From contig NC_057719.1 of NCBI RefSeq assembly GCF_004010195.1, forward strand, positions 5,265,029-5,329,028: a stretch of 64,000 nt of DNA, given 5' to 3'. The notes below the pieces were generated by a model. The model was not told the origin of the DNA, ran no database searches, and saw only the letters and a list, made by a program, of their open reading frames with translations. How positions within the stretch are numbered: position 1 is the stretch's first letter; each line of letters begins with the position of its first letter. Below, piece by piece: positions 8,251-57,420 of the stretch. Source of the stretch: Chiloscyllium plagiosum. Lineage: Eukaryota. The translations under genes were made by a program, and so were the position numbers.

Positions 8251-9068
8251 TTCCACCAACAATAACATTTCTCATTGTACTGTTCACCGGCACTGATATT
8301 CTTTACTGGGTCAACTGAACAGGTGTAAGATTCTACAGTTTGACAGTCTCCTGAGCTGAAGATGACAAGTTTGGTCTTGGTCAGTCGGGATGTGATGCTG
8401 GGAAAGAAGGGGCGGGAAAGGAATCAAATTTCTCGGAAAACTTGGTCATTTGTTTGTACTTGTCTCGGTTACAGCCTCTAAGTCTCGGAGATTCCTGCAC
8501 TAAAGGGCACGGCGCTGTGATGTAGAGAGCTCTCTCTCTCTCTCTCTGACGGCTACATAAACTCACCTTCAGACCAGAAATGGTGCAGAAACAGCACAGG
8601 GGGTGTGTGTGTGGATGTAGATGGTGCTCAGTCTCTGTGAGAAGGCGGTGATGATATAGATCGGTGTGAGTCCTGGTTTCTCCTTGACCCTTAAGCACTT
8701 GTTGTGAATGCCAGTCCGTGCAAATCGAGGGGGATAGAGGCGACTAACTGTAACGTGGAAAGAGTCGCCAAACTTCACATCGATCAATTCACCCAAGAAG
8801 GAAATTCCGGAACAGGTCCGACTGTCTGTCAGGAATAGACAACAGGGACTGACTCACAGGTAACACTTCCATTGGTTTCTAACCATCCGCAGAACCCAGG
8901 GGAGAGAATGAAGTGTAGTGCACGAAGAGCAAGAGAAGTTGGCGGGAAAATCAGAGCTGAGTGATTTGATGACAGTTTTTGTTTCGAAGTTGTTAAACTG
9001 TGAAAGTGTCTCTGTTACTCTCAGCAATCCGCGGGACATGGACCTGGTGGGATTGGATATTCCTGGTT
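8251..9068 (+). promoter_or_regulatory. Putative promoter / non-coding first exon block, copy A
   Basis: Non-TE-looking and relatively CpG-rich. Contains GC box GGGGCGGG (8409), GAS-like TTCTCGGAA (8430), (CT)n, TACATAAA (8554), donor-like GTGAGT (8666), AP-1 TGACTCA (8850) and CAG|GTAAC (8860). Near-identical copies at 41.7 and 56.3 kb; lies upstream of paralog 1. Confidence 0.55.
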
Positions 9069-9244
9069 TGGATCAAACACAGAAATTGCTGGAGATAGTC
9101 AGCAATTCTCTCTGCTTCCAGTAGCAGCGGTGTGTGTACCATCTACAAGATGCACTGCAGAAATTCACCCAATACCCTCAGACAGCACCGTCCAAACCCA
9201 CAACCACTTCCAGCTGGAAGGGCAAGGGCAGCAGAAATCTGAAA

Positions 9245-10433
9245 ATGCAAAAACCCAAAAGAACTGCGGGGGCTGGAAATCTGAAACAATAATAGAAATT
9301 GCTGGAAAATCTCAGCAGGTCTGGCAGCATGTGCAGACAGAAATTAGAGTTAATGTATAGGGTCCAGTGACCTTTCATCAGAACTGATGGTGGCTAGGGA
9401 AAGGATGGTTTACATACAGAAGATAGGGTACGGGGAAGGGGGGGTTGGGTGATTAAACAGAGATGGACATAGACCCGAGAGAGAGAGAGAAAAACAGTTG
9501 AATTGTCAAAGGAGTGGTTAAAGATCTGTTTCTAGGGAATGGATGCCTACTAGTGGGTAGTGTGTGGTAGCAGCCTATGATACCAGGCCTGGTGTGTGGG
9601 GATTTGGGGTAAGGACTTGGAAGAAAGTACCTCACACCCCAAAATTGTTCAACTTGATATTGAGTCCAGAAAGCTGTAGAGTCTCCAAGTGGAAACTTAG
9701 GTGGTGCTCTTCCAGCTTGCTCTGAGCTTGGTTGGAGCACTGCAGTTACAGATGTTGGGGCCAGGGAACAGAGTGGTGTGTTGAAGTGGCATGCAACTGG
9801 AAGCTCAGGGTAATTTTAGTCGATGGAATGTTGGTGTTCCGCAAAGTGGTTGCCCAGCCTGCATTTTGTCTCCCCATGCGTACAGGAGACCACATTGTGA
9901 GCAGCGAATGCAGTAGACTGGATTGAGTGAAGTGCGCTGCTTCACCAGGATGGTGTGTTTGGGCCCTTGGACAGTGAGGAGGGAGGAAGTAAACAGGCAG
10001 GTGTTACACCTTCTGCAGTTGCAGGGGAAGCTGCTGTAGGTCTGTGGGAGACTGTTGGGAGGAGAGGAAGATAGGATCAAGGTGTCCTGGAGTCAATGTA
10101 CCTATGGAAGGTTGAGAGTGGAGGGGGTATGTGTCTGTTGGGGGCATCCTGCTGGAGATGGCAGAAGTGGGAGCTAATGATCCTCGGGATGGGGATGTTG
10201 GTTGGATGGTGGGTGAGGACAAGGGGGACCCTATTGCTGTTGTGAGAAGGAAGAGAGTGGCTGAGAGTGAAGTGCGTGAGATGGATTGGACCTGGCTGAG
10301 GGCCCTGTCAATTACGGTGCTGGGGAAGCCTCGGTTGAGGAAGAAGGTGGAGATTTCAGAGGCCCCTATGTCAAAGTTAACATCATCAGAACAGCTGCAA
10401 GAGATGGAGGAACTGGGAGAATGGAATAGAGAC
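9245..10433 (-). mobile_element. Penelope-like element, 3' part (GIY-YIG); split by Gypsy insertion
   Basis: VYCIRCSQCGLLY motif; the sequence continues at 15959. Confidence 0.85.
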
Positions 10434-13400
10434 TCTGATGGTGCTCCTCCTTTAACAAGGTTAGGTTGTCCTTGGGTTTTTTTTTCAGAGAGGTCATAAA
10501 GACAGGGTCTCTGTTTTGTCTGTGTTTACCTATTTGAAGAAACATTTTAAATAAAAACAAACACTTGTACAATGAAAGTGGAGTGGTCACTTCTCTCAGC
10601 TCAGCTTTACTCGGATTTGGTATGGTTTGATTTGGGTTTAGTAGTCTGGCAGTTCAGAGCAAGCAGTCAGTTTTGAGGTTGCTGCTCGAGGAAACAGCTC
10701 TATGGAAGAAAGTGTTCCATGCTGAATCTCTCTGCCATCTCTCTCTCCTCTGTAAGACCCTGTGTTTGATTTTACCTTTTTTGCCAAGGGGCGTTTCCGA
10801 GGATTGTTGCAAGTATTTAGAACAGCATCATTAAATTGGGATAATCTGTTGGATTTTTGGATAAATTAAGTTATTCTGTATTCTGTTCTCTTTTGTTTGT
10901 GTTTCATTTGGTACTTTGTGAATAAATTATGTTTTGTTTAAAAGTGAGGGGTTTTGACCAGCTGTGTCACTCCTGGAATATCCATTTTACACCTGCTCAA
11001 AGCAACTCGAAAGGTTAGGGTCTGGGCGACCTTCTTGCACTGTTTTGAAGGAGTCTGCCCTGGTCCACAACAGATTGGGAGTTTGAGATTTGTTTTATAA
11101 TTCTGATTTGGGATTAGGTTTGCTGGACTCAAAAGCAGAGAGTAGTAGGTGTTCATGTCTTTTGTTCTGGATGTTGAATTCTATTGGTTTAAACAATGCT
11201 GGGGATAGCAATGGCTCTTTCAGTTACTAAGAGTCTTCTGGGGGCGGAAGAAGTGACTTTGGGGACCTTAGAAAAGGTAAGTAAGGCCAAGCTGCTGGGA
11301 TTAGCCGACAATCTGGAGTTGGATCTGCCTCCTTCCATCAGAAAAGGAGAGATAATTACAGCAATAGCTCAGTGTTTTAAATTGCTGAAAACACCACCAG
11401 AATCTTTGGAGGTGGGTAAAATTCAATTAAAAATGAAGCAGTTTGAGTTAGCGGCAAAAGACAAGGACAGAGTAAAAGAAATGAAACTGTTTGAATTATG
11501 ATTAAAAGCTGAGGAAAGAGAAAAAGAATGAAAGACCCCAGCAGAATAAATAAAAAGTGGAAGAGAGAGAGAAAAGGAGAGAGAGGAAAGTAAGAAAGAG
11601 AGAGTGTTTGAACTTCAGAAACTGGCACTTAGACAGGAAAGTCAATTTAAATGGATGGGGATGAAGACTGAACATAAGCTCAGTGAGGAAGAGAGTGAGG
11701 ATGAGCAAACCCATGGGAACCAAAGGCCTGGTGAGAAACTGTTTAAATATATTCATGCATTGCCTAAATTTGATGAGAAGAAACCAGAAGCCTTTATCAT
11801 CTCATTTGAGAAGGTGGCTAAATAAATGCAGTGGCCAGTGATTATGTGGGTTTTGTTGATCCAAACAAAACTTGTATGTAGAGCTCGTGAGGTCACATCA
11901 CCATCAGAGGAGGTATCTGGGGTGTGTGAGAAGGTGAAGAAAGCCAGTTGAAGTGCATATGAGCTTGTACCAGAAGCCTACAGACAACGTTTCAAGAATT
12001 TAAGGAGGGACTCTGGTTGAAAGGATCAAAGAAAGTAATTTTGATCTGTGGATAAGGGCATTCAAACCAGAGCAAACCTATAACACTCTTACAGAGACAA
12101 TTATTTTGGAGGAGTTCAAAAATTCACTTCCTGAAATAGTGATAACTCTTCCACAAGAGCAGAGAGTTAAAACAATAAGATTAGCAGCTGAAATGGCTGA
12201 TGATTATGAGTTGGTTCATAAATCACTGTTTGGCTTCAACATCAATTTCAATCCACCAGGGATAGAAACTGGGGGGAAGGTGGATCTCGGTGAAGATCAC
12301 AAGGATAACTTACCACAGGGTAAAAGAGAAACCCTTGAAGGGAAAAGAGAGGTTAAAAAGCTCTGGTGTTTTCACTGCAATAAGATAGGCCGCATGAAAT
12401 CAGTATTGGTGCATGAGAAAAAGCACTGGGAAGAGAGATGTAGGAAAACAGATAAGCCAGTGAATTTTGTTGGAGGGTAACGGAAAGCACAGTGGAGGGT
12501 AAAAAGCTGCACCAGAATGTACAACTGGTTGGAGATTGGTTAAGGAGGAAGTGCCAGATCTTTTCAAACCATATACCTGCAAAGGGTATAGACCAGGAGC
12601 AGCAGGTAAAGAGGTTTCAATATTACGAGATACAGGATTCTTTCAATCTTTGATGTTGAAAGATGAGGCGACATGTACCTCTGAAGGACTATTGCCAGAA
12701 AAAGTGCCAGTAACAGGAATTCACGCTGAGACCATAAGCGCTCAGTTATATAGAGTGAAGTTAGGGTTTCCAGTGAAATGTGGGGAAGTCATGGTTGGAG
12801 GACTGGACAAACTCTCAGCTGTGGGAATACAATTTGTCCTTGCTAATGATATCGCTGGTTCACAGGTAGAAATGTTGTCTGCTGTGTTTGAAAAGCCAGT
12901 GGAAACTCGGGCTATTGCAGGACACACATCCTGGGATTTTTTTGTGACTGTGTGGTAATGAGGTCACCAAGTCACCAGTGGAAACAGGAGAGATCAAAGA
13001 ATACAGATAAGAAGGCTGAAGTGGAATTACCAAAGACCCTGTGTGATCAAATGGTTGTCACAAAACAGGAGCAGATAGGTGACAAAGCAGATGTCCTTAG
13101 TTCAGGAAAACAGCAGAAGCAGGAGAAACTAAACCAACTGTATCAAAAAGCAGACACAGAAGAAGAATCTAAATGTATCCCGGTGTGCTCTTAGCTTAAA
13201 ATGATGTCTTAAAGAAGAAATGGAGACCATCACATATTCAGATAGATGAGAAATGGGCAGATGTTCATCAAGTCATGTTGCCAGTGGGTTATAGAAAGGA
13301 GGTGTTTCAGGTGAGGAATGAACTACCAATAGGGGATCATTTATGTGTAAGGAAAACCCAAGCTAAAATACAACATTTTTACTGGCCTGGAGTGCACAAG

Positions 13401-15958
13401 GGTGTAGTAGAATTTTTGCCAGACATGTCATACATGTCAGATAATTGGAAAACCACAGGAGTTAATAAAACCCACACCTTTAATACTATTCCTGCATTTG
13501 AGGAACCTTTTATAACAGTCTTAATTTGATTGCAAAGGACCCCTCTATGAGAGAAATTGGGAATCAGTATTTGTTAACAATAATGGTTGTGTCTGCTAGA
13601 CTTCCAGAGGCCATTCCATTATGCAAAACGATTGTAGAGGAGTTACTCAAATGTTTCACTACATATGGACTACCCACTGAGGGACAATCAGATCAAGGGT
13701 CAAACATCACATCAAAATTATTCAAGGAAATTATGGACACCTTAGGAATAAAACATTTCAAATCTACTGCATACCATCCAGAATCGCAGGGAGTGCTATA
13801 AAAGTGGCATCAGACATGAGACACCATGTTGAGGACATATAGTTAAGACTATCCCGATGATTGTTTGTACTTTTTGCGATCAGAGATGCATCAAATGAAT
13901 CAACCAAGTTCAGTCCATTTGAATTAGTTTTTGGGCATGAAGTGAGAGGATGCTAAAATTGATTAAGGAGAAATTTCTAAGTCAAAATTCAGAAATAACA
14001 TATTTGGACTAATGTGTAAGAATTTAGGGAATGATTAAATAGAGTGGGGGAGTTGGCTAGACAGCATTTAAAGTATCACAGCGTACAATGAAACAAGAAG
14101 CAGACAAGAAATCAAAACTCATAATTTTGCTATCAGAGATACTTCCAGTGATGGCTCAACCTTTAAAAGCAAGGTTTAGTGGATCTTATCAAGTCAAAAG
14201 AAGATAGAGTGAGGTGAACTATTGTATCAGGACTCCAGACACAAAGACATCTCACAGAGTTGTCACGTGAATATGCTGAATAAGTATTTTGATAGGGAAG
14301 GAAAGTCAAAGAAGATTGTGTCATTGGTTACAACACAGAGTGAAGAATTAAGTTCAGAGCATTCTGAATTTGAAATTCCTCAAATTACATTGGACAATGA
14401 GGAAGTTGTCAAAAATTGTGATAAGTTATTGCCTTACCTTCCAGAGGAAAATCAGAATGAACTGAAATAATTATTACTACTGCATGGGGAGATGTGTGGA
14501 AATAAGTGATTTTGCCAATGCCCAAGTCACTTTCCTGGGCCATATTGTTGGACATAGACAAATGGTCCCACGGGATGCAAAAACAAAGGGAATTGGGGAG
14601 TTTCCCAGATCATCGACAAAGAAAGCTGTACTACAATTCCTGAAATTGAGTGGATTTTATCAAAGATTTGTACCAACCATTAGCAGTGTGGCTGCTCCAC
14701 TCACTGAATTACTAAAGAAATGCAAGACGTTTCAGTGGACAGGAATCTGACAGTCTGAAAGTTGCCCCAGTATTGCCACGTCTAATTAGGCAAAACCATT
14801 CAAGGTGGTTATCGATGTGTGTAGATTGGTGCTGTGCTCTTACAGGAAGACGATGAGAAGATAGAAAGACCTACAGATATTTGTCCAGGAAATTGAACAT
14901 TTATCAGCAGAAATACTCAACAGTTGAGAAGGAGACTTTGAGCTTGGTGTTGGCATTACAACATTTCTATGTTTCTCTTACCAGTAATGTATCTGAGATA
15001 ATCATATACACTGATCATAATGCATTGAAATTTGTGGAGAAATTTAAGGATAAGAATTCCAGACTGTTTAAGTGGAGCTTGTTGTTACAGCCATTCCATT
15101 TGACAATTGCGCATGTGGCTGGACAAGGAAACATGATTGCTGACACATTGTCGAGACTGGGATGAGGTAGGGAGGTGTTTGATGGTGGGAGTAAAACAGA
15201 CTGTAATATATTTTAGTGTGCATGTTTGCATGATTTTATATATATATGTGGTAGTCTACTAACAGTGTAGGTTTAAAGGGTTTTAAAATGAAGTCATCTT
15301 TAAATATTGATGGTTCAATATTTTATGGGGGGAGGGTGTAATGATGCTGCTCCTTTAACAAGGTAGGTTGTCCCTGGGTGTTTTTTCAGAGGGGTTGTAA
15401 ATACAAAGGGTCCGTTTTGACTGCATTTATCTATTTGCAGAAGCTTTTAAATAAAAAAAACTTGCACAAAGAAAGTGGAGTGGTCAGTTCTCCCAGCTCA
15501 GTTATACTCTGGTTTGGTTTGAGCAGTCTGGCTATTCAGAGCAAGCAGTCAGTCAGTTTTGAGGTTGCTGCTGAAAGATACAGCTCCATGGAAGAAAGTG
15601 TTCCATGCTGAATCTCTCTGCCATCTCTCTCTCTGCTGTAAGACTCTGTGGTTGATTTTATCTTTTTTGCCAAGGGGTGTTTACAGCGATTGTTGCAAGT
15701 ATTTGGAACAGCGGTAGTAGATTGAGATAATCTGTTGGGTTTTCAGCTAGGTGATGTTACTCTGTTTTCTGCTCTCTTTTCTTTGTGTTTCATTCAGTAT
15801 TCTGTGAATACATTGTGTTTTGTCTAAAATCGAGGAGTTTTGACCAGCTGCATCCCTCCTGGAATATTCACTTTACACCTGCTCAAAACAACGAGTAAAG
15901 TTAGAGTCTGGGCTACCTTCTTGAAATGTTTTGAGAAGGCCTGGCCTGGTCTATAACA
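10434..15958 (+). mobile_element. Gmr1-type Ty3/Gypsy LTR retrotransposon, decayed (LTRs 10434-11072 and 15337-15958)
   Basis: Direct LTRs, a PPT before 15337 and an imperfect 4-bp TSD AGAC/AGTC. Domain order: gag (LPKFDEK..PEAYRQRF, CFHCNKIG knuckle), protease LRDTG (~12625), integrase (HFYWPG, SDQGSN, TAYHPESQG; 13275-13800), RT remnant FLGHIVG (~14530), RNase H YSTVEKE..YTDHN (14881-15165). Many stops. Confidence 0.92.
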
Positions 15959-16530
15959 AGTCTTTACAGGGAGCAGGGTGTGAGGATGTATGGTCAAGAA
16001 AACAGTGGGAATCAGTGGGTTTGTAATGGATATCTCTGGCCAGCCTATCCCCAGATATGGAATCAGAGACATCAAGAAAGGGAGGAGAGGAGTCAAAGAT
16101 GGACCAGGTATAGGTGAGAGTGGGCTGGAAATTAGAAGCGAAATAAATTTTGCCAAATCCAGACAAGCAAGGGAAGTATCACCGATGACATCATTGATGT
16201 ATCAGAGATTGAGCTTTGGGTGGTGGGGGGACGGTGTTTGTGTGTGTGTGGCTGGAGTAGGACAGAAACAAGGAATGTTCCATGTACTCCTTAATGAAAC
16301 ACTCATACCTGGGTCCCACGTAGATGTCCATGGCCACCTCTTTGATTTACGTAAAGTGAAAGGAGTTAAAGGAGAAGTTGTTCAAAGTGAGGATGAGCTG
16401 GGCAAGGCAGATGAGGGTGTTGGGGAATGGGCACAATTTGGGCCTGGTTTGCAGGAAGAAGAGGAGAGCCCTGAGACCATCCTGATGGGGGAATGGATGT
16501 GTAATGGGATTGCATGTCTCTGGTGAAGAG
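15959..16530 (-). mobile_element. Penelope-like element, RT part (continuation of 9245-10433)
   Basis: LICLAQLILTLNNFSFNS and IHYKPTDSH motifs. Confidence 0.85.
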
Positions 16531-16855
16531 GAGGCAGCTGGAGCCTGTGAACTGGAAATTCTCCAACTGACATGAAATGTCAGAAGAACCGTGAATGTAA
16601 ATGGAAAATGAAAATGCAAGTTCCACTCCAAGCCATTCACCATCCTGACTTGGAAATATATCACCATTCTTTCACTCTCACTGGGTCAAAATCCTGGAAT
16701 TCCCTCGCTCAGGGTATTGTGAGTTTAGCCACAGCTCATGGACTGCCACAGTTCAAGAAAGCAGCTCAACACCATCTTCTCAAGGGCAATTAGAGATGGA
16801 CAATAAACACTGGCCCAGCCAGTAATAGCCATGCCTCATGAGTGAATAAATAAAG
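16530..16855 (+). mobile_element. Old LINE-type 3' end fragment
   Basis: GSKSWNSL..GL.QFKKAAxHHLLKG followed by a gggcaattagagatgg..aataaa tail. Related decayed copies at ~9110-9245, 17750-18145 and 58960-59240. Confidence 0.6.
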
Positions 16856-17298
16856 GGACTGGCAACATTTGTGGAGAGAAAGCAGAGCTAAATTTCGAGT
16901 CCAGTGACCCTTCTTCAAAATTTATTCTCCCAGTTTCTCTGTATCTGTTGCATCTGTTCTGACAATGCCACCTTCCACAGAGGCTCTCACAAATGTCCAC
17001 CTTTTTTCTCAACCAAGGATCCCCAGGGCCATACCTAACCCATTTCCCACACTTTGCAGGGGGCATTTCACATGTGGTCAGGTGGTCACAAGCCACTGAC
17101 CATCTGCAACAGTCCCCATTCCAACAACCATTCCTGCTCTGCTTGTGCAGAGGATCAGAGTGATTTTATTGCAGTAGGGAGTGAATTGCATGTTTGCAGG
17201 GAGACACTGAGAGAGGGAATGGTGAGACTGGGAAGAGGTTTGGAACATGGATTGGAAATTGAAATGGAGCTGTTGGGGAATTGGCTGAGGGTTCTTTT

Positions 17299-18372: not shown

Positions 18373-18492
18373 GGAGACATATTTCAGGGAAGAAGTATTA
18401 AATACAAAATTATACAAAAGCTTGAGGACCGCAAACTCAGGAGCTCCTGAAAAACGTTTATTGGACAGATCATTCCAGGGTTGGATTGAACA

Positions 18493-19440
18493 ATCAGCAA
18501 CTGCAGTATCGACCACAGGATCCACCAGATCCTGTTTCCCGCCGTCTACATTGGGGTCTTCATCATTGGCCTCCCGACCAACCTGCTGTCCCTGTATCAC
18601 AGCTACCTACAGATCAGGCAGAAGAATGAGCTGGGAATCTATCTCTGTAATCTGACCATCTCAGACCTTTTGTACCTCCTTTCCTTACCTTTGTGGATTC
18701 AGTACATGCTGCAGCACGATGACTGGCAACATTCTCGGGAACTTTGCATCTTCAGCGGTCTGCTCCTCTACCAGAATATTTACATCAGTATTGGCTTCCT
18801 CTGCTTCATTGCCATTAATCGCTTCCTTGTTGTGGCTTACCCTCTGAAATTTAAATTCATACACAGCAGGAAGGCAGCTTTGCTCATCAGTATTCTCATC
18901 TGGCTCAAGGAGATAGCCGTCTGCACCATTTACATGGGCTCCAAGGTTCTCAGTAAAGACGAGGGGAATGACACCCTGTGTTTCGAACATTATCCTCTGC
19001 GCCTAAAGGACAAATATTTAAATATTTACAAACTCTCCATTGGCTTCGGTCTCCCTTTGATTTTATTCCTCTACTCTTACTTTAAACTGTTGAGGGTTGT
19101 GCAAAATCTCCGTGGGTCTGAACGACAGCGGAAATTAAGAATAAAAAAGTTAGTATCTGGGATAATCATAATTTTCCTGGTTTGCTTTGCCCCTTATCAC
19201 ATTTTCCTGATGGTCCGAAGCATATTTGAGTACGACTGTCCCTTTGCTGACAGTATTTTTGAGGTTTACCATGTCGGGCTGCTGCTGATGAGCTTCAACT
19301 GTGTGGCTGACCCCATCTTGTACTGTTTTGTCTCTCCAAGTTCAAAGGGTTGGTTAGCAAGGTTTCTCAATCCTGTTAGCAAGCTCCTTTCTTGTGCAAA
19401 AAGGCAAACAATCACAGATGAAAACCTCAGTTTGAATTAA
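18493..19440 (+). CDS. GPR68/OGR1-like GPCR paralog 1; open 315-codon frame but ATG replaced by ATC (non-AUG start, young pseudogene, or base error)
   Basis: The ORF track starts at TTG 18670, but the frame is open upstream to ATC-AGC-AAC-TGC (ISNCSIDHRIHQILFP...) at 18493. This aligns to ATG-AGC-AAC-TGT of paralog 2. An in-frame TGA lies at 18487-18489. There are no frameshifts or internal stops before TAA 19438-19440. Confidence 0.85.
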   Translation: MSNCSIDHRIHQILFPAVYIGVFIIGLPTNLLSLYHSYLQIRQKNELGIYLCNLTISDLLYLLSLPLWIQYMLQHDDWQHSRELCIFSGLLLYQNIYISIGFLCFIAINRFLVVAYPLKFKFIHSRKAALLISILIWLKEIAVCTIYMGSKVLSKDEGNDTLCFEHYPLRLKDKYLNIYKLSIGFGLPLILFLYSYFKLLRVVQNLRGSERQRKLRIKKLVSGIIIIFLVCFAPYHIFLMVRSIFEYDCPFADSIFEVYHVGLLLMSFNCVADPILYCFVSPSSKGWLARFLNPVSKLLSCAKRQTITDENLSLN

Positions 19441-24605: not shown

Positions 24606-24609
24606 GATA

Positions 24610-42845: not shown

Positions 42846-44331
42846 AACCAGCATACAGGTAAAGGGTGGGTCAGTGTAGTGAGGGAGAGACCATGGGCAG
42901 CAGGGACATGAATGTCCAACTCCAGACCTCGAGCACCATCCAGGCTCATGCAGCCAATTATATAAGGCATGGTATCACTGTGCTATGGACCAGACCAAAA
43001 CCCCTCAACACATTAAGAAAATAGTGTCGACCCTCACTTTGTCTTATTTTATAGGCGAGCGTGAGACATTGCATTCCGGATGCAATTCATTTGATCAAAC
43101 TACCAGTCTTGAAACAAAACGCACAGTATTCGTATACTATCGTTAAAACACAACAAAAGAAAGAAGACATTGAATGGGAATTGGGGAAAGTAACAGAACA
43201 ATAGATTATTTAACTGCTAATCAGTAACTGGTCCATCATAGCAACATCCCATTAAAAACACACACACTTGACATAGGCAAATTTCTGAAATAGATTGTCT
43301 CACATGTGATTCTGGCAGCAGGATGAAACCCCAGCTTTTAGGTGTAACAGAGAGAAGAATAACAGCTTCCACATCCAGCTTCAACACCCCAACAATTACC
43401 TTTACTGAATTACTAAAACTAAAAATCTTGGGTCCGTGTGAGCTCAATCTCACCCATTCATGCTGTTTCTGTTGTTTCAACGTTTTAAAAAAAAGGCCTC
43501 ACAAGTTGTTAACTTTATTGCCTTTGGAGCAGACTGTGTCTCAACCTTCCTTTATTAAAGCAACAGGACAAAGTACAGCTCATGAAGTAATCGTGTTCCC
43601 CTTAAAGAAAACAAACTATCAATACATAAAGATGGCTTCAGTTTTAAAAAACATTTAGCTTTACGTTACTAGTATACTACAACACATATACATTACACTG
43701 GCTCTAAGGATTAAAACAATCACTACCATAATCAAGTTCAGTCTTTTTTTTCACACCACTGAAGGCCTCCATCCTCCTTCATCAAAGTCACAAATATGTA
43801 TTGGCAATTACATTCTCTCATCTCTCATGTGTATCATTTTCAAATTGAATGGCTGCAATAATAAACTCCATCAAAAATGTCTGGTAATTTTATCTGTAAA
43901 TGTTTCCAAAAATTTTAAGGAGTTATATTCAGTGTATATAATTGTCACAGACACATGACTAGCATTATAAATGTTGCAATGTTGTAATGCCAACACCAAG
44001 CTCAAGGTTTCCTTCTCAATTAGAATATTTTCATTGATGATCATTCAATTTTCTGTAAAAATATCCATGAGGGCTTTTTATCTTCTCATCATCTTCCTGT
44101 CAGAAAACAGCACCTACACCCACATCACTCACATTGATAGCCACTTTGAATGACTTTGCATAATTAGATGTGATTAACATTGGGACAATGGTTAACAGAG
44201 CTTTCAGGCTGTCAGATGTTTTCTGAGATTCCTCCATCCACTAAAATGTTTTGCACTTTTTCAACAAATCAGTCAATGGAGTAATCACACTGCTAAAAGT
44301 TGGTACATACTTCCAATAAAAACCACTCATA

Positions 44332-47287
44332 TGACCTTCCCTCCATAGCAGGCAGCATACTGGTCAATCTCCTCTGCAACCATTCCAACGCTTCCACATC
44401 CTTCATGTAATGTGATCAGAACTGTATGCAATATTCCAAATGTGTCCGCACCAGAGTTTTGTACAGCTGCAGCATGACCTCATGGCTCCGAAACTCAATG
44501 TCTCTACCAATAAAAGCTAACACACCATACACCTTCTTAACAATCCTATCAACCGAGGTGGCAACTTTCAGGGATCTATGTAAATGGACATCGAGATCTC
44601 TCTGCTCATCTACACTACCAAGGATCTTATCATGAGCCTTGTACTTGGTATTCCTGTTACTATTTCCAAAGTGAATCACCTCACACTTTTCTGCATTAAA
44701 CTTCGTTTGCCACCATTCAGCCCAGCTCTGCGGCTAACATATGTCCCTCTGTAACCTGCAACATCCTTTGGCACTGTGCACAACTCCACCAACCTTTGTG
44801 TCATCCATAAATTTACTAACACATCCTTCAATGCCCTTATCTAGGTAATTTATAAAAATGAAAAACAGCAGTGGCCCCAAAACAGATCCTTGTGGTATAC
44901 CACTAGTAACTGAATTCCAGGATGGACATTTCCCATCAACCACCACCCTCTGTCTTCTTTCAGCTAGCTAATTTCTGATCCAAACCATTAAATCACCCTC
45001 AATCCCATACCTCCGTATTTTGTGCAATAGCCTACCGTGGGGAACCTTATCAAATGCTTTACTCAAATCCATACACATCACATCAACTGCTTTACCCTCA
45101 TCCACCTGTTTGGTCACCTTCTCAAAGAACACAATAAGGTTTGTGAGGCACGACCTATCCTTCACAAAACCATGTCGACTATCCCTAATCAAATTATTCC
45201 ATTCTAGATGATTATAAATCCTATTTCATATAATCCTTTCCAGTACTTTAATCACAACCAAAGTAAGGCTCACTGATTTATAGTTACCAGGGTTTTTTCT
45301 ATACCCTTTCTTGAACATTTGCTATCATCCAATCTTCTGGCACGATTCCTGTTGACAATGACAACATAAAGATCAAAGCCAAAGGCTCTGCAATTTCCTC
45401 CCTAGCTTCTCAGAGAATCGTAGGATAAATCCCATCAGGCCTTGAAGACTTATCTATTTTCACACTTTGCAGAATTGCTAACACCTCCTCCTTATGAACG
45501 TCAATCCTATCTAGTGTAGTAGCTTCTATCTCCTCAACAACATTATCTTTTTCCAGTGTGAAAACTGACAAAAAATATTCATTTAGCACCTCTCTTATTT
45601 CCTCAGACTCCATGGACAACCTCCCACTACTGTCATTGACTGGCCCTAATCTTAGTCTAGTCATTTTTTTATTCCTGACATACCTATAGAAAGCTTTAGG
45701 GTTTTCCTTGATCCTACCTGCCAATGACTTCTCATGTCCCCTCCTGGCTCTTCTTAGCTCTCGCTTTAGGTCCTTCCTGGCTAACGTAACTCTCAAGCAC
45801 CCTAACTGAGTCTTTATGTTTCATCTTTACATAGGCTTCCTTCTTCCTCTTGACAAGAGATTCAACGTCTTTAGTAAAGCACGGCTCCCTGGCTTGACTA
45901 TCTCCTCCCTGCCTGACAGGTACATACCTATCTAGGACACGCAGTAGCTGTTCCTTGAAAAAGCTCCACATTTCAATTGTGCCCATTCCCTGCAGTTTCC
46001 TTCCCCATTCTATGCATTCTAAATCTTGTGTAATTGCATCATAATTACCTTTCCCCCAGCTATACTACTTGGCCTGCGGTATATATCTCTCCCTTTCCAT
46101 TGCTAAACATAACTGAATTGTGGTCACTATCACCAAAGTGCTCACCTACCTCCATATCTAACACCTGGCCTGGTTCATTACTGAGTACAAATCTAATGTG
46201 GCCTCGCCTTTCATTGGCCTATCTACATACTGTGTCAGGAAACCCTCTTGCACACATTGGACAAAAACTGACCCATCTAAAGTACTCCAACTATGGTGTT
46301 TTCAGTTAATATTTGGAAAGTTAAAGTCCCCCATAACAACTACCCTGTTACTTTTGCTCCTATCCAGAATCATCTTTGCTATCCTTTCCTCTACATCTTT
46401 GGAACTATTTGGAGGCCTATAGAAAACTCCCAACAGGGTGACCTCTCCTTTCCTGTTTCTAACCTCAGCCCATACTACCTCAGTGGACAAGTCTTCATGA
46501 AACATCCTTTCTGCCACCATAATACTGTCCTTCAATACCTCCCACCCCTCTTTTGCCACCTTCCCTGTTGTCACCGAAACATCTAAACCCTGGAACCTGC
46601 AGCAACCATTCCTGTCCCTGCTCTATCCATGTCTCCAAAATGGCCACAACATCGAAGTACCAGGTACCAACCCATGCTGCAAGATCACCCACCTTATCCT
46701 GGATGCTCCTTCAAACCACCTGCCTGCCTGCCAGTACACTCTTGCTACTTTGAAATCTTATTTATGACCTCACTGTTCTCAATCTCCTGTACACTGGAGC
46801 TACAATTCAGGTTCCCATCCCCCTGCTGAATTAGTTTAAACCGTCCGGAAGAGCATTAGCAAATTTCCCCCCAAGGATATTGGTACCTCTCTGTTTCAGG
46901 TGTAGACCATCCTGTCTGTAGAGGTCCAACCTACCCCCGAATGAGGCCCAATTATCTGGGTGTCTGAATTCTTCCCACCTGCACCATCCTTGTTGCAACA
47001 TGTTCAACTGCTCTCTCTCTCTCCCTAGTCCTCGCCTCGCTAGCACATGGCACGGGTAACAAACCAGAGTTTACAACTCTGTTCTAGTTCTAAGCATCCA
47101 CCTAGCTCTCTGAATTTCTGCCTTACATTCCCATCCTACCTATGTTGTTGGTATCTAAGTGGATCACGTCTTGGGGCTGCTCCCCCTCCCCCTTAAGGAT
47201 TCCGAAAGCACGATCTGAGACTTCACCAACCCTGGCACCTGGGAGGCAACACACCAACTGTGACTCTCTCTCGTTCCCACAGAATCA
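44332..47287 (-). mobile_element. CR1-type LINE (ORF1 esterase C-terminus, endonuclease, RT)
   Basis: DLYRQDGLHL (SGNH-esterase ORF1), FYRPPNS..MGDFNFPNI, HGFVKDRSCLTNL and [14 protein letters not shown]. Confidence 0.93.
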
Positions 47288-50200
47288 CCACACAACTGAA
47301 TAATCCTGAAATGGCTTTATTGATTTGTCTTTGAAATGTAGCTGGCATTTTTCATGCCAAATGGCATGACTTTAAACTGGTACAGTTTGTTCAGTGTCAT
47401 GAACCCTAAAATTTCAGATAAAGTTATCTGCGAGTATAATCTGAATAAGTCCAACTTAGAAATATAAGTTCCTTGTCCCACCTTTTCAATACAGTCTTCC
47501 AGATATGAATAGGACATGAATCTGATTTTGTAACTGCACTAACTTTGCGATAGTCCTCCCATAATTGTTGGGTACCATCTGGTTTTGGCACCATTATTTT
47601 GGGTGAGCTCCATTTGCTGCAACTCACTTCAATTATATTGTCTTTGAGCATGTGTTCAATGTCTTTTTGAAATTGTGCCAACTTTAGATGATTATGTCTA
47701 TAAAGATGTTGCTTAATTGGAATAGCATTTCCTATATCTACATCATGCATAATTAGATTAATTCTTCTCAGCTTATACCCATATATCTTCCCATGTGATT
47801 CTAATAATTTTTTCAGGTCATTTCAATTTTCCTCTGGAAGGTAAGTCAATAATTTTTGACAACTTCCTCACTGTCCAATTTAATTTGAAGAATGTCTAAT
47901 TCAGAATCATCTGAACTTGGTTCTTCACTCTGTGCTGTAAGTAATATTATATTCTCCTTTTGCATTCCTTCAAAGTACCTTTTGAACATATTCACATGTC
48001 ACACTCTGTGAGATTTCTTTCTATTTGACATTTTTATCAAACAATTCACCTCACTCAATTTCTTTTCGATTTGATAAGACCCACTAAACCTTGCCTTGAA
48101 AGGTTCACCTACCACTGGTAGTAATACTAACACTTTACCTCCTCTGGTGAAATTACACATTTTTGATTTCTTGTCTGCTTCTTGCTTCATCACATGCTAT
48201 GCTACTTTTAAGTGCTGTCTAGCTAACTCACTTGCTTTGTTTAAAATTTCCCTAAAATCTGACACATTGTCAAATTGAACTCTGACTTATCAATTGTTCC
48301 TTAATTAATTTCAGTGGATCGCTCCATGCCCAAAAACAAATTCAAATAGACTGATTTTGGTAGAATCATTAGGTGCATCATTAATTGCAAAAAGTACAAA
48401 TGGAATTCCTTTAACCCAATCATCTGGATAGTTTTGAATACAAGCCCTCATCATAGTCTTTAAAGTTTGATGCCATTAATCTAATTCTCCCTGCGATTCT
48501 GGTGCTATGCAGTGGATTTAAATTAATTTATTCCTAAGATATCCATAACTTTGTTGAATACTTTTGATGTAAAAGTTGGTCTTTGATATGATTGTGTCTC
48601 CGTGGGTAGATTATATCAAGCAAAAAAATTGAGTAATTCTTCTATAATCCTTTTAGCTGTGACACTGCCTAATGGAATAGCATCTGGAAATCTAGAAGAC
48701 ACATCCATTATGGTCAAGAAATACTGATTCCTACTTTTTGTTTTAGATAGGGTTCCTACACAATCAGTTAAGACTCTTGCAAAAGGTTCCTCAAATGGAT
48801 AATAGGGGTGCTGGTTTTATCATTATCTGAGGTCCTCCAATTACCTGATGTATGACATGTCCAGCAAAATTCAACCACATCTTTATGCAGTCCAGGCTAA
48901 TAAAAACAGCTTTGTATTTTGGCTTGAGTATTCCTTACTCCTAACGGACCTCTTACTGGAAACTCATGTGCTACCTACAACATTTCCTTTCTATAATTCA
49001 CCTGGCAAAGCTGACAACCTGACAAACTGTTGCCCATTTCTCCTCCATTTAAATATATGATGGTCACCATTTTGTCATCAAGACTTTATTCTTAAGATGG
49101 TGACATTCTGGGCAATGCTCAGATTCTTTTCCCGTGTATGCTTTTGTCATACAACTGCTTTAGTTTTTCATCTTTCCATTCAGTTAATTTCTCTGAACTA
49201 AAAATATCCAATTTCTCCTCCACCTGTTCTTTTTTCTCAATATTTTTATCAAATAAAGTTTCTGACAACTGAAATTCAATTTTCTTATCTTTACTCCTTT
49301 ACTTCTCCTCCTGTTTCACCCTGTGGTTTTATGACCTTGTTTCCACATATTCAGGAAAAATCTCAGGATATGCTCCCTGTAACACCTCAGTTGCCTGATT
49401 TTCCACTGGTTTTTCAAACACAGTAGGCCTCACTCCCATCTGTGATCCAGCTATATCATTACAAAGCATTTCTGGAATCAAGATTTTCTCTGTTACTCCA
49501 CTTCATTTTCACCAGATCTCCAACCTCACTTTACATAATGGAATATTTTTGGATGTATTGAAACAAATCACCACCAGGCCTTTGGCTATGATGGGGTTGC
49601 TCTCCATCACTACTCCTACTTTTCACTGCTACCTCTAACCATTTTCAGTCAACTTTGAGTTTTCAGTTTCAGCCTCTGAAGTTCAAAAGATCTCTCTTTC
49701 TCCCTTTCTTCTTCTAGAAACTTCCTTTCCTTTTCTTTTTGTTCGGCTTTTAATTGTAATTCAAACTGTTTCATTTCCTTTCCCTTTCTTTTTCTTCTAA
49801 CTCAAGCTGCTTCATTTTCAATTCAATTTTAGCCATTTCTAATGATTCTGATTATATTCCTGGCAATTGTAAATGCTGCACGATTGCCAGAAATATTTCC
49901 ACTTTTCTTCAGAGACACAGGCAACTCCAACTCCATCTTGTTTGCCAATTCCAAAAGCTTTGCCTTCCTCATTATTTGTAAAAGTCCCGCAATTACTTCT
50001 TCCACCCCCAGGAAACTCACAGTGACTTAAAGGGCCGTTACTATACAAGGCACATGCTGTTTGAACCAAACAAATTCAACACCCGAAAAGAGAACACCAA
50101 AACTCACCACTTACTGCCTTTGAACCCAATGATCCTAAATCCAACATGGAATTAGAGATTTTGATCCTGACAGGAGCACCCAATTTGTTTTGGACAAGAC

Positions 50201-50572
50201 TAAACCCCCTTAGAATATTAAGAAGCCTAAATACTTTTTTATTTAAAAGGCAAATGCCAGGCATTGCATTCCAGATGCAATTTGATTTGCCAAACTACCA
50301 GTTGTGAAGCAAAATACATAATATATACATTATAGTTAAAAAACAACAGAAGAAAGAAGAAATTGGAATAAATGAACTCTATTGGAAAACTTAATAGAAT
50401 AACACATTATTTAACTACTAAACAGTAACTGTTCCATTATAGTAACATTGCATAAACACACCCTTAACAATGGCAAATTCTTAAAATAGATCGTCTCACA
50501 TGTAATTCTAGTAGCAGGAGGAGAAACACAGTTTTCAGCTGGTTGAGGAAAAACAGCTTCTATATCAGCTTC

Positions 50573-52604
50573 ATAGAGTCAGAGATGTACAGTACGGAAA
50601 TAGACCCTTCAGTCCAACTCATTCTTGCTGAACAGATATTCCAATCAAATCTAGACCCACCTGCCAGCACCCGGCCCATATCCTTCCAAACCCTTCCTAT
50701 TCATAAACTTATCCAAATGCCTTTTAAATGTTGCAATTGTACCAGCCTCCACCACTTCCTCTGGCAGCTCATTCCGTACACGTACCATCCTCTGAGTGAA
50801 AACATTGCCCCTTAGCTCTCTTTAATGTCTTTCCCATCTCACCCTAAACCTATTCCCTCTAGTTCGAGACTCCCCCACCCCAGGGAAAATACTTTGTCTA
50901 TTTATCCTAACCATGCCCTTCATGATTTTATAAACCTTTAAAGGTCCCCCCCTCAGCCTCCGATGCCCCAGGGAAAACAGCCCCAGCCTGTTCAGCCTCT
51001 CCCTGTAGCTCAAATCCTCCAACCCTGAATCTTTTCTGAACCCTTTCAAGTTTCACAACATCTTTCCGACAGGAAGGAGACCAGAATTGCACGCAATTTT
51101 CCAATAGTAGCCTAACCAATGTTCTGTACAGCCGCAACATGACCTCCGAACTCCTGTACTCAATACTCTGACCAATAAAGTAAAGCATACCAAATGCCTT
51201 CTTCACTATCCTATCTACCTGCGGCTACAGTTTCAAGGAGCTACAAACCTGCACTCCTAGATCTCTTTGTTCAGCAACACTCCCTAGGACCTTACCATTA
51301 AGTGTATAAGTCCTGCTAAGATTTGCTCTCCCAAAATGCAACACCTCACATTTATCTAAATTAAACTCCATCTGCCACTTCTCACCCCATTGGCCCATCT
51401 GATCAAGATCCCATTGTAATCTGAGGTCACCGTCTTCACTGAGCACTACACCTCAATTTTCGTGTCATCTGCAAACTTACTAACTATACCTTGTATGCTT
51501 ACATCCAAATCATTTATGTAAATGATGAAAAGTAGAGGACCCAGCACTGATTCTTGTGGCACTCCATTGGTCACAGGCCTCCAGTCTGAAAAACAACCCT
51601 CCACCACCACCCTCTGTCTTCTACCTTTGAGCCAGTTCTGTGTCCAAATGGCTAGTTTTCCCAGTATTCCATGAGGTCTAACCTTGCTAACCAGTCCCCC
51701 ATGGGGAATCTTGTCGAACGCCTTACCAAAGTCCATATAGATCACACCTACCGCTCTGCCCTCATCAATCCTCTTTGTTACTTCTTCAAAAAACTCAATC
51801 AAGTTTGTGAGATATGATTTCCCACACACAAAGCCATGTGACTATCCCTAATCGGTCCTTGCCTTTCCAAATACATGTACATCCTATCCCTCAGGATTCC
51901 CTCCAACAACTTGGCCACCACCAACATCAGGCTCACTTGTCTATAGTTCTCCAGCTTGTTCTTACCACCCTTCTTCAACAGTGGCACCATGTTAGCCAAC
52001 CTCTAGTCTTTCTGCACCTTACCTGTGACTATCGATGATACAAATATCTGATTAAGAGGCCCAGCAATCACTTTCCTAGCTTCCCACAGAGTTCTAGGGT
52101 ACACCTGATCAGGTCCTGGGGATTTATCCACTTTTATGTGTTTCAAGACATCCAGCACTTTCTCCCTTGTAATATGGACATTTTTCAAGATGTCACCATC
52201 TATTTCCCTACATTCTATATCTTCCATGCCTTTTTCCACAGTAAATACTAATGCAAAATACTTGTTTACTATCTGCCCCATCTCATGCGGCTCCACACAA
52301 AGGCCGCCTTGCTGATCTTTGAGGGGCCCTATTCTCTCCCTCGTTACCCTTTTGTCCTTAATATATTTGTAAAAACTCTTTGGATTCACCTTAACTCTAT
52401 TTGCCAAAGCTATCTCATGTCCCCGTTTTCCTCTCCTGATTTCACTCTTAAGTATACTCCTACTGTCTTTATACTCTTCTAAGGATTCACTTGATTTATT
52501 CTTTCTATAGCTGATATATGCTTCCTTCTTTTTCTTAACCAAACCCTCAATTTCTTTAGACATCCAGCATTCCCTATATCTACCAGCCTTTCCTTTCACC
52601 CTAA
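50573..52604 (-). mobile_element. CR1/HER1-type LINE, 5'-truncated, inside an LTR
   Basis: [24 protein letters not shown] and KFADDTK. Confidence 0.93.
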
Positions 52605-53262: not shown

Positions 53263-53820
53263 TCAAAGGGAATGTTTAGAGCCATAGGTACTCAGCTGTC
53301 CCTTCCAAGCCAATAAACAGCCTGTGAGGCCTTGGTTTTTTTTAAAAGTGGGAATAATAGAAGCATCCTGAAATGGCGGGGTCAAGCTCCCACAGAACCT
53401 GGGTTTTAGTTTAGTTTTCAATAGTTGATTGTGTTTGAAGTTGGTTGTGGATGTTGCCATAGCTCCCTCTCTCTCTACCAGAGATTTCTCTTGGGGTTAT
53501 TTTTTTCCTGGTTTGCAGAAACATTACATGTAAGACAAATTATTCTACTAAATTTGCCTTTGTTAAGGGTGTGTTTACAGGATGGTATTACACAGGTTGT
53601 TGTTTAACAGTTAAATAATCTGTTATTCTGTCAAGTTTTCCACTAGAGTTAAAATTACACTAATTCTTCTTTCTTTTGCATTTTAACTGTAGGTAAGAGC
53701 AAAGTGTCTTTTGCTTAAAGCCAAGTAGTGTGACCAATCAAATTACATCTACGACACAGCACTTTACATTTACCTCTAAATAAAATAAAAGGTAGGGCTG
53801 AGGCTATCTCCTTAATAGCA
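53263..53820 (+). mobile_element. Solo or partial LTR related to the LTRs of the 42981-52840 element, at the unit B/C junction
   Basis: taaacagcctgtgaggcc..ggggtcaagctcccacaga matches the reverse complement of 52640-52750. Confidence 0.75.
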
Positions 53821-54313
53821 AAAGAGACAAAATAAGTCCTGTGGGCTCAGAACACATTAAATTCTGGCTTCATTTTAAAATAAAATCACTTTCAAAAGAA
53901 ATCTTTTCAATGCAGATAATGCCCAAATAGTTCAAAATCTTACAGCTTTTACAAATCATTGTTAAACTTAAATATATATTCCCAACAGTATTCAAATGTT
54001 TTGAATGTAACATGTTAAAGCAACCCAGAAAGTTCCTATTTATACTTCAACGACTTGAAAACTAGCTCATGCACAGTCTTATAATTTTAGCATGAGACCT
54101 ACCCAGCATTGTGAAATCTACCACCCATTCTGAGATATAATCACCATTGTGAGATGATCCCATTCACGACAGAATGGATGAGAAATCAATAAAGGTAAAT
54201 GGGAATACACAGGAAGATGGGAACATCACTTATGTATAAGGAAGAAGGAGTAAGTCGAATTTTTTTGAAAAGTAACATGGAGGTATAGACCATTGGTCAT
54301 AGAAAACAGAGAA

Positions 54314-54681
54314 TAGTTGTTGTGGTTCTGTTCGCTGAGCTGGAAATTTGTGTTGCAGACCTTTCGTCCCCTGTCTAGGTGACATCCTCAGTGCTTGGGA
54401 GCCTCCTGTGAAGTGCTTCTGTGATGTTTCCTCCGGCATTTATTGTGGTTTGTCTCTGCTGCTTCCGGTTGTCAGTTCCAGCTGTCCGCAGCAGTGGCCG
54501 GTATATTGGGTCCAGGTCGATGTGTTTGTTGATAGAATCTGTGGATGAGTGCCATGTCTCTAGGAATTCCCTGGCTGTTCTCTGTTTGGCTTGTCCTATA
54601 ATAGTCTGCAACATAAATTTCCAGCTTGGCGAACAGAACAACAACGAGCACCCGAGCTACAAATCTTCTCACAAATTTTGA
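54314..54681. mobile_element. Penelope 3' fragment with inverted terminal segment
   Basis: IIGQAKQRTAREFLETWHS on the minus strand; 54318-54359 is inverted at 54604-54645. Confidence 0.85.
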
Positions 54682-55672
54682 ACAGAGAGTAGTGGTTGAA
54701 AGGTGCTTTCAGAACAGAAATCAGTAACCAGGGGTGTTCCACAGGGATCATTGCTGGGGTCTTTGCTGTTTGTAATACATACATAAATAATCTGCTTGAA
54801 AATGTGGGTGGTCTGATGGGTAATTTTGCATGACACCAAAATCGGAGAGTTGTAGGTAGTGAGAAGGATTGTGAAATATACAGTGGGATACAGATAGATT
54901 GCAGATTTAGAGAATGAAATTGCAGATGGAGTTTAATTCAGACAAATTCAGGTACAAATTATACATTAGACACCATTAGAAGCAATGATATACAGAGAGA
55001 TCTGGGCATACAGGTCTACCGATCATGAAAGTGGCAACACAGGATAATAAGGTGGTCAAGGAGGCGTATCGCACGCTTGCCTTCATCGGTCGGGGCACTT
55101 GTTATAAAAGTTGGCAAATTATGTTCCAGCTGTACAAATTTTAGTTAGGTCACGTTTAGAATATTGCCAGCAGTCTGGTTGTCACACTACCAGAAGGACA
55201 TGGATGCTCTGGGGAGGGTACAGAGGTTAACCAGGATGTTGTCTGGCCTGGAGGGTTTTAGTTATGAGGAGAGGTTGGCTAAACTCAGCTTGTTTCACTG
55301 GAAAGATGGAGGCTGAGGGGTGACCTGATAGAGGTCTATAAAATAATGAGAGGCATAGATAGGGAAGATAGAGGCCCTATCCCAGGCTAGAAATGTCAAC
55401 TGCAAGAGAGTGCAGATTCAAGGTGAGGAGGAAAGTTTAGGGGAGACATGCGGGGAAAATGTTTCACACAGATGGTAGTGGGTGCCTGGAGCTCACTGCC
55501 AGTGGAGGTGAGCAGGCATATTAGCAACGTTTAAAGTATATCTTGATAGACATATAAACAGGAGGTGAACAGAGGGATAGAAATTGTGTATTGGCAATAA
55601 GTAACAGGCATAAATAGGGATTAGGAATTGGCAGGCTTGATGGGCTGAACAGACTGTTCCTGTGCTGTAATC
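54682..55672 (+). mobile_element. Decayed CR1-type LINE 3' part
   Basis: ggggtgttccacagggatcattgctggg (GVPQGSLL) through a CR1 3' UTR. Confidence 0.85.
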
Positions 55673-55780
55673 AGTTGAAAAAATTGAAAAGGTCGGGCCA
55701 GGAGATACTGGTGTGGAGTTTTGCTAGTATTGACAGGTGTGGAGAGACAGTATTGAAGGTAAGTTGGAATGGCTTTTAAT

Positions 55781-56060
55781 GGGCGGCACGGTGGCTCAGT
55801 GGTTAGCATTGCTGCCTCCCAGCACCAGGGTGACAGGTTCAATTCCAGCCTTGGGTGACTGTGTGGAGTTTGCACATTCTTCCCCCTGTCTGCGTGGGTT
55901 TCCTCCCACAGTCCAAAGACGTGCAGGTCAGGTGAATTGGCCATGCTCAATTGCCCATAGTGTTAGGTGCATTTGTCAGAGGGAACTGAGTCTGGTGGGT
56001 TAGTCTTTGGAGGGTCGCTGTGGACTGGTTGGGCCTGTTTCCACACTGTAGGGAATCTAA
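55781..56060 (+). mobile_element. HE1-type SINE
   Basis: GGGCGGCACGGTGGCTCAGTGGTTAGC head and gggaatctaa tail; absent from the paralogous positions in units A and B. Confidence 0.92.
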
Positions 56061-56322
56061 TTATAGAGTTACCACTGGGCTGAAACAGTACTAACAAATG
56101 GGGAGTGAGGGGGGCAGGCAATAAGGCCCTGATATGGAATGGGAGGGATTGTTGGAATGATCGAGGATTGAACAAGATTGGGAAGGGAGAGGGGTGAGAA
56201 TTTCAAATGAAGAGAAAGAAGCATTTAAAAGATGACGGTAAATTGTGAAATAAGAAATTGCTTCAATTAAACGGAAGTTCGTCATTTTTATTGTCAGAAA
56301 ATAATATTCCCTGGGGTTTGGC

Positions 56323-57420
56323 TGTTCCACCAACATTAACATTTCTCATTGTACTGTTCACCGGCACTGATATTCTTTACTTGGGTCAACTGAACAGGTG
56401 TAAGATTCTACAGTTTGACAGTCTCCTGAGCTGAAGATGACAAGTTTGGTCTTGATCAGTCGGGATGTGATATTAGCAAAGGGGCGGGAAAGGAATCAAA
56501 TCTCTCAGAAAACTTGGTCATTTGTTTGTGCTTATCTCGGTTGCAGCTTCTAAGTCTCGGAGATTCCTGCACTAAAGGGCACGGCGCTGTGATGTAGAGA
56601 GCTCTCTCTCTCTCTGACGGCTACATAAACTCTCCTTCAGACCAGAAATGGTACAGAAACAGCACAGGGTGTGTGTGTGGATGTAGATGGTGCTCAGTCT
56701 CTGTGAGAAGACGGTGATGATATAGATCGGTGTGAGTCCTGGTTTCTCCTTGACCCTTAAGCACTTGTTGTGAATGCCAGTCCGTGCAAATCGAGGGGGA
56801 TAGAGGCGACTAACTGTAACGTGGAAAGAGTCGCCAAACTTCACATCGATCAATTCACCCAAGAAGGAAATTCCGGAACAGGTCCGACTGTCTGTCAGGA
56901 ATAGACAACAGGGACTGACTCACAGGTAACACTTCCATTGGTTTCTAACTATCCGCAGAACCCAGGGGAGAGAATGAAGTGTAGTGCACGAAGAGGAAGA
57001 GAAGTTGGCGGAAAAATCAGAGCTGAGTGATTTGATGACGGTTTTTGTTTCGAAGTTGTTAAACTGTGAAAGTGTCTCTGTTACTCTCAGCAATCCGCGG
57101 GACATGGACCTGGTGGGATTGGATATTCCTGGTTTGCATGATGTCGGCTTTCACTCTCCATTTCTGACAATGGAGCCAGACATAAAGGTTTGAGAAGGAA
57201 CTCAGAGATTGTGGGGTTTGCCAGGTGAAAGCAGGGCTCGCAATGCTGGTGTGAGTGCGCCTGAGGATCAGAGGCAGAGGTTCAGAGTGTTTCTATTGGG
57301 TCAGGGAGTGAGTTGCAGGTTTGCAGGGAGAGCCTGAGAGAGGGTATAGAGAGACCGGGAAGAGATTTGGGACATGGATTGGAAGTTGAAATGGAGCTGT
57401 TGGGGAATTGGCTGAAGGAG
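56323..57420 (+). promoter_or_regulatory. Putative promoter / non-coding first exon block, copy C
   Basis: Near-identical to copy B; lies ~2.2-3.3 kb upstream of the paralog 2 ATG; donor-like sites at 56732, 56926 and 57251. Confidence 0.6.

Follow-up and report, generated by a model that had tools for sequence, protein, structure and literature searches.

How can three copies of a non-coding block remain almost identical when the DNA around them has diverged? The question is raised by a stretch of 64,000 nucleotides of Chiloscyllium plagiosum (assembly GCF_004010195.1, contig NC_057719.1, positions 5,265,029 to 5,329,028 of the forward strand), here called the window, which contains a tandem cluster of GPR68/OGR1-like receptor genes. 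The three blocks are designated U1, U2 and U3 and the two long GPR68/OGR1-like reading frames W1 (18493-19440) and W2 (59619-60599). Very probably the answer is recurrent ectopic gene conversion between old tandem units, which keeps two islands near-identical within a species.

Block identity and divergence of the units

The blocks were delimited by self-comparison and alignment (Table 1). U2 and U3 show no difference over 744 consecutive columns (42077-42820 and 56654-57397) and one difference in 769 to the end of the tract. U1 is about 1% different from either, with five substitutions in 481 core sites and one 2-bp indel, and the 5' 330 bp or so of the blocks are 2.1-4.5% apart. The paralogous flanks, in contrast, are 12.3-25.0% apart with many indels (eight non-coding flank comparisons). 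This contrast had been pointed out in an initial annotation made from the letters alone and is borne out by the alignments. The upstream flank of U3, given there as a single stretch (53836-56320), is indeed homologous but consists of two pieces with repeats between them.

The longest identical runs (744, 238 and 238) exceed the maxima obtained by shuffling (210, 156 and 190; 5000 shuffles each, p = 2e-4, the floor of the test). The copy that departs from the other two varies along the block, being U3 at nine of ten sites in 56471-56560 and U1 at all six sites in 56661-57139, as is expected from overlapping conversion tracts. The G+C content (GC) of the block is about 49% against 40-42% around it, but a promoter would be GC-richer anyway. 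Five tandem repeats were found in the window, none of them inside the blocks, and the Rfam search gave no matches.

The duplication of the units is old, as first proposed, because the unit-specific pairs of long terminal repeats (LTRs) are strongly diverged. One pair (10438-11072 and 15341-15958, 15.6% different) belongs to an element specific to U1, lying between anchors that are only 135 bp apart in U3. The other (43044-43383 and 50239-50573, 18.5% different) belongs to an element specific to U2 with CR1-type reverse transcriptase pieces inside it. The converted tract of U1 halts at the left edge of its insertions (9073/9074), and about 8 kb of insertions from 9074 split a segment of intron 1 from its block. 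This segment is 13-14% diverged in U1, whereas the same segment differs by 0.7% between U2 and U3. That insertions end conversion is a textbook expectation according to the accessible text of PMC3924837. A reading of 57274-57418 as a CR1 fragment was rejected; the depth is low, there are no further copies in the window and repeats begin near 57540.

Of 24 listed sequencing runs, four were aligned as contigs to 56070-60750, namely X1 (organism A) and X14 (organism C), which are DNA, and X13 (organism B) and X17 (organism D), which are probable RNA. Organism A, with 0-5 differences per unique contig, is the same or a very close species and maybe not independent of the window assembly, while organism C is another species. 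In X14 (about 61% of the run read; eight records displayed of a far larger set) the core contig 56746-57135 has other letters at 11 of 390 positions (2.8%). For unique orthologous DNA the figure is 40 of 1487 (2.7%; Fisher p = 0.86), taken from four of the eight displayed records after exclusion of two paralogous-looking ones, one overlapping the U2/U3 tract (18/396) and the core itself. The window copies differ at 0 and 4 sites within 56746-57135. The block core is thus 0-1% different within the window against 2.8% to organism C, and the paralogous flanks are 12-25% different against 2.7% for orthologous unique DNA, so the duplication is older than the species split. In organism D the exon contig (29/491) is not better conserved than the intron contig (39/865); some 9-11 of the 29 exon differences may be sites private to U3. 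These comparisons support gene conversion over selection as the explanation of the block identity. The initial annotation had named gene conversion and/or strong selection; the first is supported, while the second is not needed, since the core diverges between species as fast as the neighbouring unique DNA.

First exon and mosaic coding exon

The block was originally described as promoter-like. The promoter part of this description holds, but the block is not only a promoter: it is strongly indicated to begin with a promoter of about 200 bp, which is followed by an untranslated exon of some 410-490 nt and then by the first part of intron 1. An exon contig of X13 (record 9, depth 46) stops exactly at 56925, where the intron depth is about 3, and the donor CAG/GTAACA found there is common to all three units. 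In X17 (records 26-28) the contig of the exon reaches as far as 56927, that of the intron begins at 56898, and a third, of depth 24.1, joins at 59508 after 26 unaligned letters; given contig overlaps of 30 bases, these offsets match a splice from 56925 to 59510. The depth of the exon in X17 is 27.4 against 7.5 for the intron. Splicing of exon 1 onto the W2 coding exon is therefore strongly indicated from the contig ends and from depth, which in RNA contigs cannot rank genes. The X13 exon contig stops before the G that opens both the intron and the two acceptor exons of the window, a weak hint of splicing to another exon outside 56070-60750.

Exon 1 carries six short upstream ATGs and has a CpG observed/expected ratio of 0.62, the window as a whole having 0.25. 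The block also contains a GC box and three NF-kB-like matches, counted without a chance control, by patterns that we take to represent these motifs.

The second island lies in the coding exon. Over codons 12-185 the difference between W1 and W2 is 2.9%, with a synonymous divergence (dS) of 0.07; elsewhere it is 10-21%, with a dS of 0.35 for codons 186-296. GC at third codon positions is 63-65% in the converted part against 47-50% (p = 0.007-0.013), the values for W1 being 65% and 50%. In trees of 35 proteins, residues 12-185 group all carpet-shark paralogs together (100/96) and reject the paralog clade (approximately unbiased (AU) test, p = 3e-5; the tested group was named after the other tree was seen), while residues 186-326 group the short-type genes of three orders by paralog (100/98). 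The coding exons are mosaics in which the grouping follows shark lineage for the transmembrane core and paralogy for the third intracellular loop and tail. Paralog-specific sites are concentrated in this loop and tail (quartet contrast significant at p < 0.05 for 20 of the 21 species pairs). In all sampled shark orders the loop occurs in two forms, VRG/LRG or SHG; among the proteins compared, those of the three rays and of the chimaera are all of the SHG-like form. At positions 29, 42, 43, 80 and 111 the C. punctatum model matching W1 has residues of the W2 type, which suggests, if the model is right, conversion after the split of the two bamboo sharks.

Both islands are present in few copies. 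The single-copy depth in X1 is about 5.1, and the contig 56544-57691 at 9.8 is 1.9 times this value, against 1.98 times predicted from the three window copies; the coding core, at 19.4, corresponds to about four copies. Judged by depth, the genome thus appears to have some three blocks to four or so coding exons. In X14 the contig 56746-57135 has a depth of 24.6 against about 8.4 for single-copy DNA, that is, about three copies collapsed. Searches with tblastn found two coding exons in the window, against three blocks, and none between U2 and U3. Despite its promoter and exon 1, the U2 unit has neither an intron end nor a coding exon (42846-53821). Either the unit is an orphan, or it serves W2 as an alternative promoter, or the assembly has lost a gene here.

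Table 1. Positions of the features in the window (W, reading frames; U, units)
Feature	Positions	Strand	Remarks
U1 upstream paralogous flank	7404..8250	+	Not converted; 14.6% from U2, 12-19% from U3
U1 block	8251..9073	+	Promoter, exon 1 (about 8445-8859, donor CAG/GTAACA), first ~215 bp of intron 1; exon by homology to U3
U1-specific mobile-element insertions	9074..17146	.	LTR element 10438-15958 inside; SCAN-like gag match below Pfam cut-off
U1 copy of intron-1 segment	17147..17291	+	Escaped conversion; 13.1% from U3, 13.8% from U2
W1 coding exon	18373..19440	+	315/316-aa type, GPR68-like; candidate acceptor 18372/18373; protein P0127
W1 converted coding tract	18526..19047	+	Codons 12-185; 2.9% from W2
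U2 upstream paralogous flank	40924..41740	+	15-16% different; older LTR-like homology with U1 reaches 39335
U2 block	41741..42845	+	Promoter, exon-1 copy (about 41940-42348), ~495 bp of intron 1
U2-specific LTR element	43044..50573	-	Nested CR1-type pieces; LTR pair 18.5% different; internal homology to U1 element
U3 upstream flank	53822..56322	+	Homologous pieces 53822-54295 and 56085-56322, repeats between; 12-19% from U1 and U2
U3 block	56323..57422	+	Promoter, exon 1 (about 56517-56925, donor 56925/56926), ~495 bp of intron 1; contigs of X13 (record 9), X17 (records 26-28), X1 (record 3) and X14 (record 18)
W2 exon 2	59510..60599	+	Acceptor 59509/59510; intact 326-aa GPR68-like frame 59619-60599; protein P0129
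W2 converted coding tract	59652..60173	+	Codons 12-185

Proposed mechanism and alternatives

Beside the observed identity pattern, low copy number, equal rates between species, escape behind an insertion and coding mosaic, the following course of events is proposed. An old tandem duplication would have given units of a promoter, an untranslated exon 1, an intron and a single coding exon, most of which diverged and were filled with mobile elements. Two islands, the promoter with exon 1 and the intron start and the transmembrane coding core, would have stayed similar enough to pair, probably because early purifying selection held them above the pairing threshold. The open promoter may be where breaks begin, and ectopic gene conversion, probably with a GC bias, would spread new mutations across the islands and so give an ordinary rate between species together with near-identity within them. 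Tracts would end where homology breaks off, as at the edge of the U1 insertions. G proteins and arrestins bind to the third intracellular loop and tail of a G protein-coupled receptor (GPCR), and selection against conversion may protect these parts. Continuing homogenisation would be largely a neutral by-product, because the orphan block and the gene without ATG are homogenised too; this fits unless the first exons of U1 and U2 splice to intact exons elsewhere. A promoter hotspot caused by loss of PRDM9 was considered and is not established as the cause; the accessible text of PMC5519329 reports no more than a weak SSXRD domain in the whale shark and none in the elephant shark, and it says nothing of bamboo sharks.

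Several points weigh against recurrent conversion as set out here. With one shared site and the U1 comparison used, the contrast between species and copies is 10 against 3 in 390, which is not significant alone (p = 0.09), and besides the window the test draws on DNA of a single further species and on probable RNA of another. Minor variants are lost in contig graphs, and the near-identity inside organism C is read from depth. At 57012 the X1 contig has the U1 letter where U2 and U3 of the window agree, which is a polymorphism or a polishing error in the window, and the exact count of no differences in 744 may include polishing or be specific to the individual. Moderate selection on the promoter is compatible with the data. 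The GC direction in the escaped segment is 9-10 against 4, on too few sites. In the coding exon, a tree of residues 186-326 grouped by shark order is not rejected by the AU test (p = 0.34), because transmembrane helices 6-7 are partly converted too; the partition into loop and tail was chosen after the data were seen, and the species pairs are non-independent.

It is possible, if doubtful, that conversion by the same mechanism is selectively favoured since it synchronises the expression of the receptors, a reading that differs from neutral conversion only in purpose. The islands do coincide with the promoter and exon 1 and with the receptor core, and loop and tail are paralog-specific across sharks. 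Against this, only one of the three blocks precedes an intact frame in the window, and there are about four coding exons for about three blocks by depth. In organism D the W2-type junction (24.1) and unspliced sequence (7.5) roughly account for the exon-1 depth of 27.4, which weakly suggests a different first exon for another expressed paralog. The purpose of co-expression, as put forward in the initial annotation, is thus unsupported and is weakened by the missing coding exon of U2, the ATC in place of ATG in W1 and the unequal numbers of blocks and coding exons.

A more elaborate scheme, which we regard as rather unlikely, takes the three first exons as interchangeable promoters, with U1 and U2 also splicing to W2 or to coding exons outside the window. 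Conversion would then synchronise the promoter and the proton-sensing core, selection acting ever since sharks arose would have guarded the tails and the two-state loop (VRG or SHG), and one cell would have matched acid sensors with different G-protein or arrestin outputs.

That diverged copies were collapsed or polished into one consensus by the assembly is very improbable. The exact identity of the U2/U3 run, the U1 letter of X1 at 57012 and an assembly gap of 938 bases (N) in the window, at about 61960-62900 and some 1.4 kb downstream of W2, are in its favour. U1, however, has private differences, the 5' third of the blocks is a graded patchwork, and two public DNA runs, one from another species, merge the copies at 2-3 times depth, which needs shared 31-mers. 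The coding mosaic, moreover, is seen in many independent assemblies. An artefact could explain a few sites, turning 0 of 744 into a few of 744.

Strong purifying selection alone, freezing a regulatory element in all three copies, is scarcely credible, and as the sole cause it is largely refuted. The block does hold a promoter and exon 1 with a GC box, NF-kB-like matches and a raised CpG ratio. Its core, however, diverges between species like unique DNA, the identity extends 495 bp into an intron of which the separated U1 segment has diverged, and the orphan block and the start-less gene share the block. Lastly, a young high-copy transposon inserted three times, already raised in the initial annotation and in keeping with a repeat-rich window, is excluded by the depth of about 2-3 copies in two DNA runs, in which true repeats of the same alignment reach thousands of times more, by homologous positions within homologous flanks and by the absence of an Rfam match.

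Known systems, receptor genes and minor features

Gene conversion is a known process, of which the GPR68-like cluster is a new example; no earlier description of it in a shark GPR68 cluster was found by title or start of abstract, in a search that left most subscription papers outside. The systems compared here are described from the accessible text of the sources cited. The mammalian BEX/WEX/GASP genes with their BGW element (Winter and Ponting 2005, PMC1274310) resemble the shark genes: they too form a tandem cluster in which conversion acts on a 5' untranslated exon separately from the coding region, and G+C is raised. Their coding regions are strongly diverged or unrelated, whereas the shark cluster has a second tract in the coding core, copies that are 99-100% identical and one block without a coding exon. 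In primate SIGLEC11/SIGLEC16 (PMC5701461) the tract likewise covers upstream sequence and the sensing part and leaves the signalling end distinct, conversion recurs in each lineage and a non-functional copy participates. There, however, a lectin pair of immunoglobulin-like type has one continuous tract of about 2 kb, while the shark GPCR cluster has two islands 2-10 kb apart and paralogs common to all sampled shark orders. Mammalian CCR2/CCR5 (PMC8877049) are also adjacent class A GPCR genes with lineage-specific partial conversion of the coding exon, the N-terminus being spared in bats; their tracts lie in the coding sequence and vary by lineage, unlike the consistent sparing of the third intracellular loop and tail in sharks. 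BMP8A/B, DDX19A/B and TUBG1/2 (Carson and Scherer 2009, PMC2720389) are likewise old pairs with mosaic trees and raised third-position and intron GC in the converted parts, but their upstream regulatory regions are diverged, whereas in the shark homogenisation is strongest in the promoter and first exon.

The locus is a natural experiment on non-coding conversion, one segment being homogenised under continuous homology and escaping where an insertion cut it off. Near-perfect identity of paralogous promoters can pass for ultraconservation or recent duplication, and whole-protein trees of this cluster yield false lineage-specific duplications. The spared loop and tail mark sites where the shark GPR68-like paralogs probably differ in signalling.

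In a quick tree of 33 proteins the cluster proteins form a lineage with members from cartilaginous fish alone, whose sister is a second shark GPR68, and are placed with GPR68 rather than GPR4 (Shimodaira-Hasegawa-like approximate likelihood ratio test, 100 for the GPR68 side). The best structural-sequence match is GPR68/OGR1 (PDB 9bhm and 8z3o; E 2e-101, ungapped). The positions that we take to be the extracellular histidines of GPR68 are largely kept across 53 cluster proteins (H17 in 52, H20 in 53, H84 in 53, H245 in 51 and H269 in 53), and the position of human H169 is Asp in W2. The acidic triad of proton-sensing GPR68, taken from the accessible text of Rowe et al. (PMC7948426), is found as D67 in 53 of 53, E149 in 53 of 53 and D282 in 52 of 53. 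The cluster thus shares the triad and most histidines with GPR68/OGR1 and differs from it as a tandemly expanded second lineage specific to cartilaginous fish and in the Asp at H169. The receptors of the window are GPR68-like and acid-sensing by family, and a proton response is predicted from the sequence.

Four cluster proteins of C. plagiosum are in the database (346, 315, W1 and W2), and genes of the 315 and 326 types are both present in four carpet sharks. The white shark and the basking shark have at least 7-8 cluster proteins each (P0004-P0005, P0011, P0016, P0136-P0144, P0151-P0153), including a short 305-aa type, and the cluster is more expanded in mackerel sharks. Two loci from a metagenome scan (50% and 36% identity) are not cluster members and were not used.

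The W1 frame opens with ATC (18493-18495) where the ATG should be. An in-frame TGA lies two codons before it, and the remainder of the frame is intact; the matching C. punctatum model likewise lacks this Met. W1 may be a pseudogene held intact partly by conversion. An in-frame start supplied directly by exon 1 was not found with the three acceptors tried, the longest frame beginning at the internal Met72. The C. punctatum model P0128 (414 aa) draws its first 100 residues or so (10159-10459 in the window) from the frame of a mobile element. The window has this frame too, at 10116-10499, where it extends into the edge of the LTR. A donor near 10459 and an acceptor at 18497/18498 would, judged by eye, be in frame, and this N-terminus is perhaps an artefact of the gene model, perhaps a start that W1 gained by exonisation. 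The model shows that the mobile-element insertion of U1 is present in a second species.

A third Gypsy-like element with an RNase H-like match (PF17919) lies between W1 and U2 at 33096-36065. A 56-bp piece at 17938-17993 matches the receptor coding sequence around codons 36-53 with 86-89% identity. It sits in the W1 intron amid repeat-like DNA about 660 bp upstream of its likely source, and it may have arisen by templated insertion or be what is left of a deleted copy.

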